DNA of 24,505 nt from a virus. Taxonomy: Duplodnaviria; Heunggongvirae; Uroviricota; Caudoviricetes. The translations under genes and the position numbers were made by a program. Each line of letters begins with the position of its first letter. The stretch's first letter is position 1. The notes under the pieces were generated by a model. That model ran no database searches and was not told where the DNA came from. It saw nothing but the letters and a program-made list of their open reading frames with translations. Of the stretch, positions 954 to 21,594 are shown in pieces. The stretch is from positions 1 to 24,505 of the IMG/VR virus record IMGVR_UViG_2548876862_000002; one strand, 5' to 3'.

Positions 954-1111
954 GTTAATTCTCCAGATAGTCGCAGCACCCGTTGCGCCGCATATCCGGT
1001 TATTCTATTACCCGAAAAACCACATATGGATAGACAACCCATAAATACGAACAGATATTACCTTTCAGGTGATTCGCAAAACGTGCTGGATAGCAAACAA
1101 ATTATTTGCTA

Positions 1112-1127
1112 CTGTATAAATATACAG
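1112..1127 (+). promoter_or_regulatory. LexA (SOS) box CTGTATAAATATACAG, overlapping a TATAAA -10-like hexamer
   Basis: Exact fit to the CTGT-N8-ACAG LexA operator pattern with an AT-rich centre; the flanks (TA CTGT...ACAG TT) are close to the TACTGTATATATATACAGTA consensus. It lies 21 nt upstream of the ATG at 1149. Confidence 0.7.
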
Positions 1128-1148
1128 TTATTGCATGGAGAAGATAAG

Positions 1149-1406
1149 ATGCAGCAGTATCACTATCCACTGGAAGACGGATTTACCGAAAGGATTCACA
1201 CGCCGGGAGGCGTCAGGTCACTGGTGGAGGGATCGCACTTGATGAAATTACTCCGGGATCTCGATAAGGATGGATTTAATGTCGATGGCCCACTTGCCGA
1301 ACTGACTGCACTGATTAACTACGTCACCAGCTCGCAGATGTCTATGCAGGATCTGCAAACACATCTCGACTATTGTGCCGAACAATTACGAAAACAAACC
1401 AGATGA
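1149..1406 (+). CDS. Hypothetical 85-aa protein, putatively SOS-regulated; no family recognised
   Basis: Internal ATG (M42) of track ORF 1026..1406 with SD GGAG 8 nt upstream; the LexA box sits immediately upstream. Orientation is opposite to the phage late genes. Confidence 0.6.
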   Translation: MQQYHYPLEDGFTERIHTPGGVRSLVEGSHLMKLLRDLDKDGFNVDGPLAELTALINYVTSSQMSMQDLQTHLDYCAEQLRKQTR

Positions 1407-1424
1407 GGTTTGAAATTACCAAAT

Positions 1425-1508
1425 GGAGTGCTTATATTTACCTTTGCGGTAAATTTACATCGCACTCCTCTTGTGCCATAGTAATCGGGCACTGGCAAAA
1501 TCCAGTGC
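1425..1508 (+). repeat. Two stem-loops in the intergenic spacer: a nested inverted repeat (1425-1468) and a perfect 7-bp hairpin (1489-1508)
   Basis: GGAGTGC(1425-1431)...ATTTACC(1436-1442)-tttgc-GGTAAAT(1448-1454)...GCACTCC(1462-1468); GCACTGG(1489-1495)-caaaat-CCAGTGC(1502-1508). No U-tract follows either, so they are not classical terminators. Confidence 0.45.
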
Positions 1509-1593
1509 TGGGATTGGTCTCCCGGATTACTACAGAGTTAGTGCTACACTCATTGACGCCACATTGAGGTGGCTTATAGATGGAAATTTCACA

Positions 1594-1755
1594 ATGAAAA
1601 AAGCATTTGCTGCACTGTTCGTTTTGTTGTCTCTGGTAGCTTCAACTCAGGCCTTTGCCGGTAGTTGTCAGCACGACAGCGACACTGCTGCTGACGGCTC
1701 CCGCTGCGGTGGGCGTTCTGCGGATTCCCGCCCTGGCGGCGGTGGTATTCGTTAA
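1594..1755 (+). CDS. Small secreted peptide precursor (53 aa) with a predicted Sec signal peptide and a Cys/Gly-rich mature part of about 31 aa
   Basis: In-frame ATG (M42) of track ORF 1471..1755. N-terminus MKKAFAALFVLLSLVASTQAFA has a basic n-region, a hydrophobic core and an AxA cleavage motif. SD is weak (GGAAA). Stop TAA at 1753-1755 lies directly before the terminator hairpin. Confidence 0.4.
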   Translation: MKKAFAALFVLLSLVASTQAFAGSCQHDSDTAADGSRCGGRSADSRPGGGGIR

Positions 1756-1778
1756 AAACAAGGCCGCGAAAGCGGCCT
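1752..1778 (-). terminator. Intrinsic terminator shared by convergent transcripts; strongest on the minus strand
   Basis: GGCCGC-gaaa-GCGGCC hairpin (1762-1777). On the minus strand it is followed by TTGTTTTTAAC. On the plus strand it follows the 1594..1755 stop by 6 nt but lacks an immediate U-tract. Confidence 0.55.
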
Positions 1779-1786
1779 GTGACATG

Positions 1787-2083
1787 TCACGTTCCTTTTC
1801 TGAATGATAGCCGTTCGAAAAATGATGACATTCCACCGCAGACAATAGCAAAGATGATCCCACCAAAGAAGAGAAGGCCAGCCTGCCACCACTCCCACCG
1901 CCATACATCCACAGCGCCAACCATACCAACAATCGCTCCAACAAATGGAATATAGCTCACGATGAAAGCAATGGGGGCTGCAATTATCCAGTGCAATCCC
2001 CACCATGATTCAAGCCCAGCCATAATTGCTGCCAACTGAAAAAGACCAACGACGATATAAACAATGAATCCTATAGCTTGCAT
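1787..2083 (-). CDS. Small integral membrane protein (98 aa, about 3 predicted TM segments); holin-like or moron membrane protein
   Basis: ATG at 2083 with SD AGGTGA at spacing about 6. Sequence is dominated by hydrophobic stretches with a W-rich loop. It is the last gene before the minus-strand terminator. Confidence 0.6.
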   Translation of the reverse strand: MQAIGFIVYIVVGLFQLAAIMAGLESWWGLHWIIAAPIAFIVSYIPFVGAIVGMVGAVDVWRWEWWQAGLLFFGGIIFAIVCGGMSSFFERLSFRKGT

Positions 2084-2095
2084 GTAGTCACCTAT

Positions 2096-2269
2096 TTACC
2101 CAGTAAAAATCAGAGGCCTCCCCTCAATAAGGCTTGCAACAAGAACTATTCCCTGCACAACAAAGATGAACCAGCAAATAGCTTGAGTCTGAGGGTTAAG
2201 AAAATATTTGTAGCGGTCAATAAATAACAACCCACCAGAAATTATCACACTCAAAATAATTAAAAACAC
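2096..2269 (-). CDS. Candidate small hydrophobic protein (57 aa, GTG start) with two hydrophobic segments
   Basis: Hand-translated, not in the ORF track (under 60 aa). GTG at 2269-2267 with AAGGAAG upstream. Frame MFLIILSVIISGGLLFIDRYKYFLNPQTQAICWFIFVVQGIVLVASLIEGRPLIFTG, stop TAA at 2098-2096. It is in the same frame as, and 3 codons downstream of, the stop of the 824-aa gene. Confidence 0.25.
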   Translation of the reverse strand: MFLIILSVIISGGLLFIDRYKYFLNPQTQAICWFIFVVQGIVLVASLIEGRPLIFTG

Positions 2270-2278
2270 AACACTTCC

Positions 2279-4753
2279 TTATTGCGGAGTGACATCCTGA
2301 GGTCGCCACCAGTATGTCTGATTAAACTCTTTCTTCGAACGTTGCTCCATTTTACGCAAATAGCCTGGTGAAAAATACTCCTGCATCTGGTTAAAGATCA
2401 TATGATCGAGAGCCGCCTTTAAGTACCAGAGATTCGCACCTGGCATCAAACCTTTCCCCAGCTTCACCAGATCACCACCAGTCTGCTCACTCTTCCCTTC
2501 CACAGCATTTAACGGTATGCCCTGAGCAATCTTCACTACGTCATCAACCAGACCAGCTACCGGGCCAAGCATCGACGCCAGTGCGCCGCTTCCGTACCTA
2601 GTGTGATCTGACAATAAAAAGTCACCGTAAAGGCCAAGACCACCACCTTTCAGTAGAGCACCAAGCCAGAATTTTGCGGCATCTTCTCCTGTCATCTCTC
2701 GAGGATTACGACCAGACGCAAGGTCGTTAAGTTGCTGCGACAAAGCGCCAAGAATGGTCGTACTGGCAATAAACGTCGCAATATATGCCGCACGACCACC
2801 AGCAGACGGCATACCCATAGCGCGTGACCAGTGACGCATAACCACCGAGATAGGGAACGATTTAAACAGGAAAACACTTCTCGTTAATTCACCTTTCCAT
2901 GTTCCACGCTGAATACCAGAACCGGTTATCAGTTGCTCACGTGCTCCCGGTGTAATAACAGCCATATCAACTTCTTCAGTTACGGCACCGAGCAGTTTAC
3001 GCATTGCCTCAAATTTCACGCGTTCAGGCTCACCAAGATGTTTAACTGCTGAATCAGGGATACGCATAATGCTTTCTGGTGTCAGCATCGTATTATTGCC
3101 GTTCCCCCAGTCCTCCTGTTGCGCCAGCTTCCATACGCTCCAGTCTGTGTCAGTAATCCCTTTGCTTTTCAGGATGCGAAAATCAGAATCATCGAGGCTA
3201 CGAAGGTCTGGTGTCCGTGACACTACTTCTCCCAGGCTTCCCATCATGGTTACGCCATAGGCGCGCTTGTGCGCATCTGACCATGCTGTAAGCCCACTGG
3301 CACGCATTACCGCCGTTGCAGCCCAACGAGACACAGACGGCCCCATATTATCCATCGCCCAGCGGTTAACGCTGCCAAGTAGAGATTCCATCGCCAGACC
3401 AGCGCGGCGCGCCCGTGCAAGTTCTGTACGGTTCGTTGGGTCCATAGCTTCAAGCTGGTTGCGGAATAACTGGTTCATTGGAAGGTTGGTAACCTTCGCA
3501 GACAGATACATGGTTCCAAGATCAGAGAACGATGACAGCAACGCGGATCCGAGTCTGCTGGCAACCAACCAGTTGCGGATATTGTCAGACCATCGCGCGA
3601 TGTGCGGATTCGCTACAGGCTGTGTCTTTCCGGAAATAAAGTTGTACAGATTCTCTGTGTTGTTCGCCAGCCGCTCGACTTTACCGGTTTTACTCGGGTT
3701 AGCTGTTGCCGTTTCTGCCTTCACCTGATCAAGAAGAGAGCGGAAAACATGATCGGGGTTTGGGCCATATGTTTCGACCAGTGCAATATCTTTACTGATA
3801 CCTTCAAGGTGACCGACCATGATTTCCCATAGAGAGCGATCGCCATAAAGTTGCTGATATTGCAGATAGGAATCTGCATCTTTGAAATGTATCTGTCGTG
3901 ATGCATTACCACGGTTAGCACGTGCGCCGGAAATTCGCATTCCGGTATCAGTAAGCTTATTCAGCCCACCAGTAGCGATCGTGTTATAAGCCTCTCCAAG
4001 AAATGCAGACAACTCGGCATCGTTCATCAGTTGTCCATCGGCTCGGGTATAATATTTGCGATCCAGCTTACCTATAACATCGCTAACCCATTTATCTTTT
4101 GATACCGCCCCAACCTTTTCCATAGAATGATGTTGAGGGATCCCCCAGTTTTCGAGATAGCCAATGTCCCCACCAGCATCATTAAACCGGCGGCGAAGTA
4201 GATCTGTCACTTCTCTCCACGCCTTAGCACCTTTTCTTGCTTTAGCATTGCCAGTATTTTGCCCTCGCATTTCATATACCAGGTCACGCACGCCCGCTTC
4301 ATCTTCAAACAGGCCAAAAAAGCGAGGATCAACTGCTTCAAATGCCTCCTGCAATTGACTCAATGCATAATCACGAGTGGCTTTTGTTCTGGATTCAACA
4401 GAGAGGAAATTCGATTTACCGTCTGCATTAAAAGCAATAGTACGGTTAAGAGCGCCAAGTTTCCCATCAGCCCCTTGATAGCTATTGATAAATTTATCCA
4501 ATCTCTGACGTGCGGCTATAGTGAGGGCCACACGACGTTTCTTTAATGCCGCTTCTCGCTGTAATTCTTCAGATGCCAATTGTGCTGCACGATACAACCG
4601 TTCTGATTCGGAAAGTTGTCGCCACGACATCGGGTCATCACGAGCAATGGAGCGCATATTTCGATAAATGCGGTCTTCAATGTTCTGTATTTCTCGCGCC
4701 GTTAACGTGCGCTGCGCCGCCTGCTGGACCGCTTGTATACATTCCTGTCTCAT
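2279..4753 (-). CDS. Internal virion / ejection (core) protein, 824 aa
   Basis: ATG at 4753 with SD GAGAGG 9 nt upstream. It is the last large gene of the virion operon, in the position of the C-terminal part of a T7 gp16-like ejection protein. Function is inferred from position and size only. Confidence 0.6.
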   Translation of the reverse strand: MRQECIQAVQQAAQRTLTAREIQNIEDRIYRNMRSIARDDPMSWRQLSESERLYRAAQLASEELQREAALKKRRVALTIAARQRLDKFINSYQGADGKLGALNRTIAFNADGKSNFLSVESRTKATRDYALSQLQEAFEAVDPRFFGLFEDEAGVRDLVYEMRGQNTGNAKARKGAKAWREVTDLLRRRFNDAGGDIGYLENWGIPQHHSMEKVGAVSKDKWVSDVIGKLDRKYYTRADGQLMNDAELSAFLGEAYNTIATGGLNKLTDTGMRISGARANRGNASRQIHFKDADSYLQYQQLYGDRSLWEIMVGHLEGISKDIALVETYGPNPDHVFRSLLDQVKAETATANPSKTGKVERLANNTENLYNFISGKTQPVANPHIARWSDNIRNWLVASRLGSALLSSFSDLGTMYLSAKVTNLPMNQLFRNQLEAMDPTNRTELARARRAGLAMESLLGSVNRWAMDNMGPSVSRWAATAVMRASGLTAWSDAHKRAYGVTMMGSLGEVVSRTPDLRSLDDSDFRILKSKGITDTDWSVWKLAQQEDWGNGNNTMLTPESIMRIPDSAVKHLGEPERVKFEAMRKLLGAVTEEVDMAVITPGAREQLITGSGIQRGTWKGELTRSVFLFKSFPISVVMRHWSRAMGMPSAGGRAAYIATFIASTTILGALSQQLNDLASGRNPREMTGEDAAKFWLGALLKGGGLGLYGDFLLSDHTRYGSGALASMLGPVAGLVDDVVKIAQGIPLNAVEGKSEQTGGDLVKLGKGLMPGANLWYLKAALDHMIFNQMQEYFSPGYLRKMEQRSKKEFNQTYWWRPQDVTPQ

Positions 4754-18325: not shown

Positions 18326-18354
18326 TTGACATTTAACGCACAAATTATTACCTT
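18326..18354 (+). promoter_or_regulatory. Sigma70-type promoter candidate: perfect -35 TTGACA, 17-bp spacer, -10 TACCTT
   Basis: TTGACA at 18326-18331 and TACCTT at 18349-18354 in an AT-rich, ORF-free region. It points toward the leader and the tRNA. Confidence 0.4.
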
Positions 18355-18684
18355 TTAGGTAACTAAAAAGTTCATTCCGGTTACTAACCTGACTGGCTTG
18401 TCGTTAAATTGAACAGGTGGAGTGAGCTTTTATTTTGAGCAGTACGGCGTATGGCACATGCGCCGATAGCGGTCTGGATACGTTTAAGGGGCACCCTCCC
18501 TTGCTCGAGCAAACGAACCAGGTAGCCGGAATGTGCAAGTCGAGCGGTTTTATTCCGCGCACGGGGATTCACCATCCCGGCGATTCGGTGTGACACCTCG
18601 GAAGAGACGAGGGTGCAACGATGAGAGCATTTATGGAGCTGCGACAAAGTGTGGTGCCTTAACAGGCTAAGTGCTCTCAGCGTT

Positions 18685-18761
18685 GTGGCATTAGCTCAGT
18701 CGGACAGACCAACCGCCTTCTAAGCGGTTGGTCGCAGGTTCGAATCCTGCATGCCACGCCA
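18685..18761 (+). tRNA. tRNA-Arg (anticodon UCU), argU-like, prophage-encoded
   Basis: Cloverleaf by hand: acceptor GTGGCAT/ATGCCAC (7 bp), anticodon stem ACCGC/GCGGT with loop CTTCTAA, T-arm GCAGG-TTCGAAT-CCTGC, discriminator G and encoded CCA. The D-stem has one mismatch. Strong resemblance to E. coli argU from the D-loop onward. Confidence 0.8.
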
Positions 18762-19056: not shown

Positions 19057-19404
19057 ATGATTAAAATCAATAACGTACGTGGTGCTAGCGTTAGCGTCAA
19101 CGGAGAAGACTTCACTGGTCATCATATTACGATTAACAATGGAAAAGTGATCGTTGATGGTGTCGAAAAAAATAGCAATCTTGGCGGACAGATTAACGTA
19201 ACAATTAATGGAAGCGTGGAAGGCGTTGAGATTGAAAATGGATCAGTGACTGTAAGCGGTGATGCACATTATGTGAAAACTATGTCTGGTGATGTCCATT
19301 GTTCCAATGTATTGGGAAATGTTAACACTATGTCTGGTGATGTAATCTGCGAAACTGTTGGTGGAAACGCCAGCACAATGTCTGGAAATATTATCAAGAA
19401 ATAA
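19057..19404 (+). CDS. Beta-solenoid-type repeat protein (115 aa), bactofilin-like repeats; moron gene
   Basis: ATG at 19057 with SD AGAGGA at spacing 9, and its own terminator. Internal roughly 60-bp DNA repeats give the protein repeats NTMSGDV...; G-x-V/I-x-G periodicity throughout. No signal peptide. Family assignment is tentative. Confidence 0.6.
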   Translation: MIKINNVRGASVSVNGEDFTGHHITINNGKVIVDGVEKNSNLGGQINVTINGSVEGVEIENGSVTVSGDAHYVKTMSGDVHCSNVLGNVNTMSGDVICETVGGNASTMSGNIIKK

Positions 19405-20965: not shown

Positions 20966-21558
20966 TGATTACCATCCTGACGTTCTTTGAGTCGCTTCCT
21001 GGCTGCTGCTATGCGATCAGCAATTGTCACATTCACATTAACATCCAGACGTTCTTTGAACGCGTTGACATCAACATGCTTACCAATCAGCTCAAGGTTC
21101 TTCACCTTGTCAGGCCATTTAATTTTTTTGAGGATTGTCTCTATCGAATCCTCGTTCATGTTCATGATGGTCGATGACAGATCAAAGCCACTAAGCGTAG
21201 TGCGCCAGATTTTCGGCCACTCACGGATTGGTTTAAGGCTCCCATCGTCGTTGAGGATGTCGATCACGTCCATCTGGTCGATCTCCACCAGGCGCATGAG
21301 AACGTAATCAGCACTGACGCGCATTCGTTTGTTGCGCTCCTCCATCAACTCGGCAATCCGTTTTTGAATGCGTTCATCGCGCATCATGACACTGGCTTTA
21401 ACTGCCGCTGTATTTGGGGAGAATCCTGCGTTAATCGCTGCCTGAGTCTGGTTTTCAGGCGTTTTGATGTATGACTGGCAATAAGCCTCCTGCATTGCTG
21501 TTAGTGGCTTAAATTGCGTTGATTTGCGTTTATAGGTTTTAGGTTCAGTAGGCATCAT
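20962..21558 (-). CDS. Terminase small subunit (about 198 aa)
   Basis: The track start at 21636 is TTG and would span the upstream terminator hairpin. The ATG at 21558 (MMPTEPKTYK...) has SD GGTGG. Basic N-terminus and position upstream of the large subunit. Confidence 0.6.
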   Translation of the reverse strand: MMPTEPKTYKRKSTQFKPLTAMQEAYCQSYIKTPENQTQAAINAGFSPNTAAVKASVMMRDERIQKRIAELMEERNKRMRVSADYVLMRLVEIDQMDVIDILNDDGSLKPIREWPKIWRTTLSGFDLSSTIMNMNEDSIETILKKIKWPDKVKNLELIGKHVDVNAFKERLDVNVNVTIADRIAAARKRLKERQDGNQ

Positions 21559-21565
21559 AACCACC

Positions 21566-21594
21566 GTGGTAATAGTTACCGTTGTGGTAATAGT
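21566..21594. repeat. Tandem direct repeats GTGGTAATAGT(T)ACC x2 immediately upstream of the terminase small subunit start
   Basis: Copies at 21566-21576 and 21584-21594, identical over 11 bp, 18 bp apart. Confidence 0.5.

Follow-up and report, generated by a model that had tools for sequence, protein, structure and literature searches.

A small gene behind an SOS operator, lying antisense to the virion genes, raises two questions at this phage locus: what the gene does, and whether the sequences behind it belong to the same unit. The first-pass annotation of the window (the whole stretch of 24,505 nucleotides analysed here) had proposed a LexA-controlled two-gene cassette inserted into the virion operon, in which an 85-aa ORF of no recognisable family is followed by a structured spacer and a signal-peptide mini-ORF. 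Our analysis leads to a different reading, in which positions 1110-1406 very probably form the SOS-controlled antirepressor switch of an epsilon15-like E. coli prophage and positions 1405-1752 are separate cargo.

Three Uetakevirus phages, phiV10, TL-2011b, and ZX5, match the window, and the 1.3-kb locus (window 1000-2300) is 99.6% identical to a 38.7-kb circular phage record, L012, from E. coli NADC1036. These similarities identify the window as E. coli prophage DNA of the epsilon15-like type (Uetakevirus). On the minus strand, the tail gene begins at 953 and the genes for internal/ejection-type proteins of 824, 600, and 862 aa run from 2279 onward; the strands confirm that the 85-aa gene, ant, lies antisense between the tail gene and the ejection-protein genes. 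At 1761-1778, the hairpin AGGCCGC-GAAA-GCGGCCT carries a T-run on the minus strand and none on the plus strand, so we regard it as the intrinsic terminator that ends the late (virion) operon; it is kept in relatives. The ant gene diverges from the tailspike gene and runs towards the end of the late operon.

The LexA box and the ant gene

The sequence TACTGTATAAATATACAGTT at 1110-1129 is a near-consensus LexA (SOS) box with 18 of 20 consensus matches, and it contains the palindrome CTGT-N8-ACAG at 1112-1127. The loose pattern CTGT-N8-ACAG occurs 3 times in the window (0.42 expected) and is not decisive alone. With the 20-mer consensus TACTGTATATATATACAGTA at no more than 3 mismatches, the 1110-1129 site (2 mismatches) is the sole match in the window, with 0.00 expected. 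The box is kept in 10 related phages from four genera, among which its centre is variable. The CTGT-N8-ACAG palindrome with its AT-rich centre has the form of an operator of the E. coli LexA regulon, and LexA binding is predicted. The canonical SOS operator described 21 nt upstream of the 85-aa ORF (1149-1406) is thus upheld, and the sequence supports probable SOS/LexA control of this gene. Over the LexA-box region, only one base separates Salmonella phage SPC32N from SPC32H: the C of the ACAG half-site, at the equivalent of window position 1125, is an A in SPC32N; this operator mutation reportedly renders the antirepressor Ant constitutive.

The Shine-Dalgarno sequence GGAG of ant (1137-1140, plus strand) lies 8 nt before the ATG at 1149 and is identical across 10 phages. 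A candidate -35 region of the ant promoter is the block TGCTGGATAG at 1084-1093 (plus strand), which would give TGGATA, 17 nt, then TACTGT; its core CTGGA.A is invariant in the 10 phages. The consensus promoter scan gave no sigma-70 match of at least 9/12 overlapping the LexA box or at 1084-1093. The TATAAA at 1115-1120, which falls within the LexA box, was not adopted as the ant -10, given the null scan and its replacement in SPC32H (TATGTT) and loss in phiV10. We infer the promoter hexamers of the ant and spacer region from their sequence.

The well-initiated ORF at 1149-1406 (plus strand) encodes 85 aa, for which a phmmer search of the PDB returned chain E of 5D50, 'Anti-repressor protein' (E=4.1e-47, residues 2-84). 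The protein is 88% identical to Ant of phage SPC32H (tblastn). Among PHROG families, phrog_450 matches best (E=9e-48), and phrog_1760, 'anti-repressor', is a further match over residues 27-75. By tblastn, ant is present in all 35 matching phage records, and the SPC32H and SPC32N records label the gene 'ant: anti-repressor protein'. Together with the locus position, these matches identify the gene as an orthologue of SPC32H Ant, an antirepressor already characterised and of solved structure (PDB 5D50), so the ORF does have a recognisable family. A longer ORF of 126 aa from the ATG at 1026 was rejected, as the orthologues and the crystallised chain begin at the codon equivalent to 1149; the solved SPC32H chain has 86 aa, its alignment begins at residue 2 of the 85-aa form, and the region upstream of 1149 aligns with indels among relatives.

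This assignment bears on the proposal that the locus is an accessory module, induced by DNA damage and inserted in the virion operon, with a toxin/immunity, bacteriocin-like, anti-phage, or host-modulating function. A gene pair antisense to the late operon behind a LexA box resembles the arrangement of colicin and some toxin genes, neither protein matches a Pfam or NCBIfam family (searches with four small proteins gave sub-threshold noise only: DUF724, LT-IIB, UpsF, and MarB), and the family of the mini-ORF, phrog_14503, belongs to the category 'moron, auxiliary metabolic gene and host takeover'. However, an antirepressor known from both its structure and its genetics shares 88% identity with the 85-aa protein, no toxin or defence family was matched in Pfam, PHROGs, or NCBIfam, and ant occurs with its LexA box at the same position in all ten relatives whose locus was examined and co-occurs with homologues of the phage repressor Rep. 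We therefore consider an accessory module extremely improbable. Comparison with related prophages, proposed earlier to separate an insertion from a conserved structural gene, showed that the gene is conserved but is regulatory rather than structural. Because it lies at the same locus in ten relatives and is present in 35 phage records, ant is best classified as a core gene of the lysis-lysogeny switch and not as an inserted cassette.

Of 5426 complete E. coli genomes, 529 carry the ant gene with its LexA box; among the matches listed, every E. coli copy is annotated 'hypothetical protein', although a solved structure and published genetics exist for the 88% identical orthologue. The switch itself is already known and ordinary, and the value of the assignment is mainly that of an annotation correction: naming ant identifies the route by which DNA-damaging antibiotics induce the common podoviral prophages associated with O157, O26, and O103.

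Putative Rep operators and the proposed induction switch

A Rep-operator-like inverted repeat, TTACCTTTCAGGTGA, lies at 1058-1072 between the start of the tail gene (953, minus strand) and the ant promoter; its counterpart in the epsilon15 record is labelled 'protein_bind repressor'. Sites of the form TTACC-N5-GGTAA with at most 1 mismatch number 5 in the window (0.29 expected), 13 in the near-identical phage L012 (0.55 expected), and 18 in SPC32H (0.52 expected), where three fall in the rep-cro intergenic region, in which such sites cluster. From this distribution and the annotation of the epsilon15 record, on which the identity of the Rep operator rests, we infer that these sites probably bind Rep. 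The rep gene lies outside the window; L012 encodes a 194-aa HTH protein (WP_000836290.1) that shares 42% identity with SPC32H Rep along its entire length, and homologues of Rep and Ant occur in essentially the same set of phage records.

In the published scheme, LexA self-cleavage allows Ant to be made, and Ant inhibits the repressor by protein-protein interaction (PMC7380047, citing Kim & Ryu 2013). For SPC32H, and for SPC32H only, a summary states that Ant binds Rep and frees it from DNA, and that Rep is not cleaved through RecA (PMC9638917). In a lysogen of the present phage, host LexA bound to the 1110-1129 box would silence ant, as the literature on the orthologue indicates for LexA repression. 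DNA damage would activate RecA, leading to LexA self-cleavage and ant transcription. The 85-aa Ant would then bind the C-terminal domain of Rep; in the SPC32H system, according to the orthologue literature, the Ant tetramer splits the Rep tetramer into dimers. Rep would leave its TTACC-N5-GGTAA-type operators scattered over the genome, and lytic growth would follow. Binding of Ant to Rep in the E. coli prophage is an extrapolation, because Rep is 42% identical to its SPC32H counterpart versus 88% for Ant.

The variable slot between ant and the late-operon terminator

Relative to relatives with an empty slot, only 1405-1752 (348 bp) is extra. This segment fills a slot for variable cargo that lies outside the switch, with ant on one side and the late-operon terminator on the other. 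Across relatives, the slot is empty or holds a full IsrK-C4-Bro-N module, a truncated module, or a mini-protein gene. In the window, the structured spacer and the signal-peptide ORF noted in the first-pass annotation are both present.

The spacer opens with a promoter-like site, TTGAAA-17-TATATT (1410-1438, plus strand; 10/12), which is the best match in 900-2350, is kept in cargo-bearing relatives, and abuts an operator-like site. The latter, TTACCTTTGCGGTAA (1438-1452), resembles the Rep operator, with half-sites conserved and a centre that varies among relatives, and is enclosed in an extended palindrome or hairpin, GGAGTGC...GCACTCC, at 1425-1468. In phiV10, this element is a perfect palindrome with 18-bp arms (-32.1 kcal/mol versus -19.0 in the window). 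Possibly, the hairpin also serves as a weak terminator for ant. A second promoter-like site, TTTACA-17-TGcCATAGT (1454-1482, plus strand; 9/12, TG present), is kept in Tyrion and in Klebsiella ST11-OXA245phi3.2; its expected start, at about 1489, is where the Rfam isrK match begins.

At gathering score, an Rfam search of the whole window returned tRNA only, and two further matches surfaced only under an E-value threshold: isrK (RF01394) at 1489-1554, with 42.1 bits against a gathering score of 50, and c4-a1b1 (RF03163) at 1476-1528, with 31.5 bits against 46.7. The isrK model aligns with stems 1 and 2 only of its three stems and skips the terminator with its U-tail. We annotate a truncated IsrK/c4-a1b1-type RNA at 1476-1537 (plus strand), in which both 5' hairpins are kept and the terminator stem, C4 RNA, and Bro-N antirepressor are lost. 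The C4 RNA and the Bro-N antirepressor gene are absent from the window and present in phiV10, phiv142-3, Tyrion, and Klebsiella phages; in relatives, isrK scores 68-80 bits and C4 61-78 bits, and the complete module runs in the order promoter, isrK, C4, and Bro-N antirepressor. Comparison with the phiv142-3 record (L005) places a deletion or recombination junction at 1532-1538: window 1001-1532 corresponds to L005 1202-1733 and window 1536-2299 to L005 3344-4108, leaving ~1.6 kb missing. This ~1.6-kb deletion removed the IsrK terminator, the C4 RNA, and the Bro-N antirepressor. Of the 5426 complete E. coli genomes, only 2 carry the fused junction. The spacer is thus the 5' stump of a module of the P1-immI/Gifsy-1 isrK type, a broken remnant. 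A tRNA-like reading of the three-way junction at 1483-1531 was rejected, as ARAGORN finds nothing.

We also considered whether the spacer, instead of being a dead remnant, encodes a still-functional regulatory RNA of the IsrK/C4 family. The two 5' hairpins are intact, with family-typical loop sequences, the fold is more stable than that of shuffled sequence (z = -3.4), and the upstream promoter-like and operator-like sites are retained. Against this, the stump scores below the isrK gathering score and has no terminator or poly-U stem, and neither a C4 RNA nor a Bro-N target gene is left in the window. Its pairing with the translation-initiation region of the mini-ORF gives no signal (-16.4 kcal/mol versus -19.7 +/- 3.7 for shuffles), and the rarity of the configuration also weighs against function, making a functional RNA quite unlikely.

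The 53-aa protein encoded by the mini-ORF at 1594-1755 (plus strand) carries at its N-terminus a signal-peptide-like segment, MKKAFAALFVLLSLVASTQAFA, followed by GS. The product is a predicted secreted or membrane-anchored mini-protein, a moron, with a signal peptide and a 31-aa mature part carrying two Cys. Its whole 53 aa match phrog_14503 (E=3.9e-39), to which it belongs, and 57 homologous protein clusters across Enterobacterales are named 'transmembrane anchored protein'. The E. coli and Klebsiella versions differ in codons by 21 synonymous and 10 non-synonymous changes. A lipoprotein reading was set aside from the sequence, in which FAGSC misfits the L-[AS]-[GA]-C lipobox and AFA before G resembles a signal peptidase I site. 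Upstream lies a candidate extended -10, TGcTACACT (1542-1550, plus strand), which may be the promoter of the mini-ORF itself. The hexamer keeps its first T, the following A, and the final T at the E. coli, Klebsiella, Cronobacter, and Pectobacterium loci (TACACT, TACAAT, TAAAAT, and TACGAT). The minimum-free-energy fold contains a 5'-UTR hairpin, GCCAC-ATTGAG-GTGGC (1558-1573, plus strand), whose stem is kept in Klebsiella and Cronobacter with different loops.

These features can be weighed against the view that a single bicistronic transcript under LexA control covers ant and the mini-ORF, with the mini-protein as an SOS-induced partner of Ant. The two genes share a strand, no intrinsic terminator with a proper T-run lies between them, the intervening IsrK terminator has been deleted, and in a Cronobacter prophage the mini-ORF begins only 72 nt after ant. 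However, ant stands without the mini-ORF in SPC32H, epsilon15, BUCT554, YDC107_2, and apparently most E. coli prophages, and the mini-ORF is also found without ant in an unrelated Pectobacterium prophage. In TL-2011b, the mini-ORF sits behind a terminator located just upstream of its -10. Moreover, the mini-ORF keeps its own conserved -10 hexamer and 5'-UTR hairpin, the genes are separated by what is left of another module, with its Rep-operator-like site, and the exact fusion is restricted to the same 2 of 5426 E. coli genomes. A single bicistronic unit is therefore unlikely, and the two-gene cassette does not stand as one unit. Some LexA-dependent read-through from ant into 1594-1755 is possible, because no strong plus-strand terminator separates the two genes. 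The mini-ORF is an autonomous small-protein moron with its own candidate -10, whose mode of expression we deduce from these features.

The variable slot behind ant offers a modest lead for prophage cross-talk. It is conceivable, if very unlikely, that the deletion left a working part, either the IsrK stump itself or a stump driving the secreted 31-aa two-cysteine peptide, and that full-length relatives operate a two-stage cascade. If so, the promoter, the operator-like site, and the two a1/b1 hairpins would still be transcribed once Ant removes Rep. Acting in trans, the stump RNA could then serve as a decoy for, or an activator of, the IsrK/C4-controlled Bro-N modules of co-resident prophages, coupling the SOS induction of this phage to theirs; alternatively, the stump would drive induction-timed expression of the secreted peptide. 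In the full-length relatives, LexA would release Ant, Rep would be inactivated, and the IsrK/C4-gated Bro-N antirepressor would be released in turn. To our knowledge, such a two-stage LexA-Ant-Rep-Bro-N antirepressor cascade has not been described.

Comparison with known systems

The closest known system is the Ant-Rep pair of the Salmonella epsilon15-like phage SPC32H (Kim & Ryu 2013, J Virol 87:11775; Kim et al. 2016, PNAS 113:E2480; PDB 5D50). As in SPC32H, ant points away from the tailspike gene and lies antisense to the late operon, the LexA box stands at the same distance from the same Shine-Dalgarno sequence and start codon, a Rep homologue is encoded in the near-identical phage L012, and TTACC-N5-GGTAA sites are present. 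In contrast to SPC32H, the host is E. coli, Rep (of L012) is only 42% identical, and the LexA-box centre is ATAAATAT in the window and ATGTTTAT in SPC32H. In SPC32H, ant is directly followed by the late-operon terminator region, whereas the window carries the 348 bp of extra sequence between them.

The LexA-controlled antirepressors of coliphage 186 (Tum) and of Gifsy-1, Gifsy-3, and Fels-type prophages (Lemire et al. 2011, PMC3121763) follow the same logic: LexA represses the gene of a small protein, and this protein inactivates a non-cleavable repressor (PMC7380047). No sequence relationship to these proteins was found, the only PHROG matches being phrog_450, phrog_15539, and the C-terminal part of phrog_1760; moreover, these phages are sipho- and myoviruses, whereas the window phage is a podovirus.

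The P1/P7 immI (c4-icd-ant) and Gifsy-1 isrK-orf45-anrP loci (RF01695, RF03163, and RF01394) resemble the spacer, in which the first two stems of isrK/c4-a1b1 align, and the isrK-orf45-anrP architecture (Hershko-Shalev et al. 2016, PMC4825925) is the module order seen in the relatives. Unlike P1/P7 immI and Gifsy-1, the element in the window is without a terminator, C4 RNA, and antirepressor gene. The upstream control site is an epsilon15-type TTACC-N5-GGTAA palindrome in the window and Op51 in P1.

In phage P22, immI (mnt-arc-ant, with sar RNA) is located between the ejection-protein and tailspike genes. The present phage thus resembles P22 as a temperate podovirus with an antirepressor region between these genes. 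P22 Ant is large, is controlled by Mnt, Arc, and sar, and is dispensable for SOS induction (PMC7380047). In contrast, the Ant described here is small, is predicted to be under LexA control, and is the expected trigger of induction.

The 85-aa protein and its LexA box

All elements of the LexA-box-controlled two-gene accessory cassette described in the first-pass annotation were recovered from the sequence at its coordinates. The 85-aa ORF (ATG at 1149, end at 1406), for which no family had been recognized, is by homology the anti-repressor Ant. A sequence search of solved structures with this protein returned PDB 5D50 chain E "Anti-repressor protein" as the only match (E=4.1e-47, residues 2-84). 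By tblastn, it was matched in 35 phage records, each with at least 80% query coverage, and an 88% identical gene is annotated as "ant: anti-repressor protein" in the Salmonella phage SPC32H, which has a characterized Ant/Rep (antirepressor/repressor) pair, and in Salmonella phage SPC32N. The top PHROG family, phrog_450, is of unknown function, and residues 27-75 have a further match, to the C-terminal part of phrog_1760 "anti-repressor". The failure to place the protein earlier is explained by Pfam, NCBIfam, and PGAP, none of which gives it a name. With the protein identified as Ant, the proposed toxin, bacteriocin, or defense function has no support left and is hardly credible.

The LexA box CTGT-N8-ACAG (1112-1127) lies inside TACTGTATAAATATACAGTT (1110-1129), and the Shine-Dalgarno sequence GGAG (1137-1140) is located 8 nt 5' of the ATG. 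A loose LexA pattern occurred three times in the window, an excess over the expected 0.42 that does not settle the matter; when up to three mismatches to the full 20-mer consensus were allowed, the 1110-1129 site was the sole match in the window (0.00 expected). In an alignment of the tail-gene-to-ant intergenic regions from 10 phages of Escherichia, Salmonella, Enterobacter, and Klebsiella, the box half-sites, the Shine-Dalgarno sequence, and the start codon were retained and the box center was variable. Judged by this alignment, the LexA box is the conserved candidate operator of ant. Within this intergenic region, SPC32H and SPC32N differ by a single base, a C to A change in the ACAG half-site that corresponds to window position 1125. 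This SPC32N operator mutation reportedly makes Ant constitutive, and SPC32N is said to establish no stable lysogeny. A consensus promoter scan at the LexA box found no match of at least 9 of 12 positions. The -10-like TATAAA proposed earlier reads TATGTT in SPC32H, and the promoter hexamers are not assignable by sequence alone; the conserved block TGCTGGATAG (1084-1093) contributes to a candidate promoter in which TGGATA and TACTGT, 17 nt apart, would be the ant hexamers.

Phage context and candidate Rep operators

The region matched the Uetakevirus phages (epsilon15-like podoviruses) phiV10, TL-2011b, ZX5, and phiv142-3 of E. coli, and the queried 1.3-kb locus (window 1000-2300) shares 99.6% identity with a circular 38.7-kb phage record from E. 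coli NADC1036. On that record, the window extends from inside the tail gene (start at window 953, minus strand) through the whole virion operon (minus strand) to approximately 3 kb past the small terminase gene. The rep gene is absent from the window; in the NADC1036 phage, an HTH protein of 194 aa (31304-31888 of its record, L012) is 42% identical to SPC32H Rep over the full length, and the set of phage records with a Rep homologue is essentially that in which Ant occurs.

In its distribution, the inverted repeat TTACC-N5-GGTAA resembles a Rep operator, and it provides candidate Rep sites. SPC32H has 18 copies versus 0.52 expected, three of them in the interval separating rep from the divergent early gene and another three immediately downstream of rep, and there are 13 copies in the NADC1036 phage and five in the window. 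In the epsilon15 GenBank record, the equivalent of window 1058-1072 is annotated as a repressor-binding site. The late region has three further palindromes of this type, one (18348-18362) close to the tRNA and the portal end and a pair (21558-21572 and 21576-21590) shortly upstream of the small terminase gene, with SPC32H counterparts at 12-26 and 3175-3189; their positions suggest that the late promoters may also be under direct control of the phage repressor. The tRNA-Arg gene (anticodon TCT; 18685-18761), also a feature of SPC32H, is on the plus strand, opposite to the virion operon, and is adjoined by an antisense 115-aa ORF (19057-19404, plus strand) whose NADC1036 equivalent is annotated as a hypothetical protein. 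Between the E. coli and Salmonella phages, Ant is 88% identical versus 42% for its presumed target Rep, and the TTACC/GGTAA half-sites are common to both. The surface that Ant recognizes may thus be small and conserved, and Ant could act on different immunity types.

The best-supported reading, which we consider very probable, is the known induction switch, in which the SOS response would act through LexA on Ant and through Ant on Rep, followed by unrelated cargo. Published summaries of the mechanism have self-cleavage of LexA give rise to an Ant that inhibits the repressor by protein-protein interaction (PMC7380047) and, for SPC32H, have Ant bind Rep and release it from DNA (PMC9638917). Genetic and structural descriptions of this system already exist for an 88% identical orthologue, and the window copy is ordinary. 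Of 5426 complete E. coli genomes, 529 carry the ant and LexA-box region, with ant called a "hypothetical protein" in every copy listed, and the main value of the analysis is the correction of this annotation.

The mini-ORF and the end of the late operon

The 53-aa mini-ORF (1594-1755) has a signal-peptide-like N-terminus and belongs to phrog_14503. Its E. coli and Klebsiella versions differ by 21 synonymous and 10 non-synonymous codons with an invariant core, CQH..DTAADGSRCGGRSADSRPGG, a pattern by which it is a real gene. Its family, a small one of 57 clusters within Enterobacterales, is called "transmembrane anchored protein" by the sources, and no Pfam domain was found in it. An AFA|G site suggests cleavage by signal peptidase I, which would release a 31-aa peptide with two cysteines.

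The earlier view of ant and the mini-ORF as a two-gene unit is not supported, as their pairing is not conserved. In a Cronobacter prophage, ant is followed after 72 nt by the mini-ORF, and TL-2011b has a terminator just upstream of the mini-ORF. In an unrelated Pectobacterium prophage, no ant is found near the homologue, which is placed antisense between the gene for a 2785-aa LPD/MuF protein and the tail genes (L014 5001-5168); the mini-ORF thus recurs antisense in virion modules. The -10-like hexamer preceding it (1545-1550 in the window) keeps T, A, and the final T across loci (TACACT, TACAAT, TAAAAT, TACGAT), and the stem of its 5'-UTR hairpin (1558-1573) is conserved across the compared loci. 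The mini-ORF appears to behave as an autonomous moron. A LexA-driven bicistron of ant and the mini-ORF, arising as partial read-through, is compatible with the lack of a good plus-strand terminator between them, but is unlikely given that they are not a conserved pair.

The T-run of the GC-rich hairpin at 1761-1778 is on the minus strand, and the hairpin therefore terminates the virion operon. Directly after it, a perfect 12-bp palindrome, GTGACATGTCAC (1779-1790), overlaps the stop codon of a 98-aa minus-strand ORF and is kept in the Cronobacter and Klebsiella loci. This small hydrophobic ORF (1787-2083; phrog_3075), whose product has a weak, sub-threshold Pfam holin-family match (E=0.027), and a second one of 57 aa (2096-2269, minus strand) follow the 824-aa ejection-type gene at the end of the late operon. 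The slot varies among relatives; it encodes 46 aa in SPC32H, against 64 aa in epsilon15.

The spacer and its relation to antirepressor modules

An Rfam search of the spacer at permissive thresholds detected isrK at 1489-1554 (42.1 bits versus a gathering score of 50, E=8e-8) and c4-a1b1, the a1/b1 target element of C4 antisense RNAs, at 1476-1528 (31.5 bits versus 46.7). The alignment is restricted to the first two hairpins; the window lacks the terminator stem. Upstream of the RNA, the palindrome GGAGTGC...GCACTCC (1425-1468; perfect with 18-bp arms in phiV10) encloses an operator-like site (1438-1452) and is flanked by the promoter-like sites TTGAAA-17-TATATT (1410-1438) and TTTACA-17-TGcCATAGT (1454-1482), the latter of which would start transcription at ~1489, the beginning of the IsrK model. 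Persistence of the stump as an active RNA is quite improbable: the stump lacks two features by which the family is defined, its cis targets are gone, and no pairing with the mini-ORF initiation region was detected.

By BLAST comparison with phiv142-3 (L005), the junction of a deletion lies at 1532-1538: positions 1202-1733 of that phage correspond to window 1001-1532 and its 3344-4108 to window 1536-2299, so that ~1.6 kb are missing in the window. Of 5426 complete E. coli genomes, just 2 have the fused arrangement. In E. coli genomes with any match to the 1405-1760 segment, pieces of it occur at a median of two places, indicating that other E. coli prophages commonly carry the mini-ORF and IsrK-type stumps or modules. 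In relatives such as YDC107_2, SPC32H, epsilon15, and BUCT554, the slot is empty, with the late terminator almost directly after the ant stop codon.

The complete module occupies the same position in phiV10, phiv142-3, Tyrion, and Klebsiella phages, and comprises isrK (68-80 bits), a C4 antisense RNA ~100 nt further on (61-78 bits), and a Bro-N "anti-repressor" gene. The Bro-N gene lies directly behind the LexA-controlled ant in full-length relatives (L001, 4474-5304; L005, 1677-2581; L007, 1825-2777; L011, 1826-2759), preceded in order by a Rep-operator-like site, isrK, and the C4 RNA. The slot behind ant often carries a further antirepressor module, which a Rep-operator-like site and an IsrK/C4-type RNA would gate. 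Such relatives would have two antirepressor systems in tandem, possibly as a feed-forward cascade, and the comparison hints at a two-stage cascade that was lost in this window. The architecture of the complete module is known from P1 immI. It is likewise that of the isrK-orf45-anrP locus of Gifsy-1 (PMC4825925).
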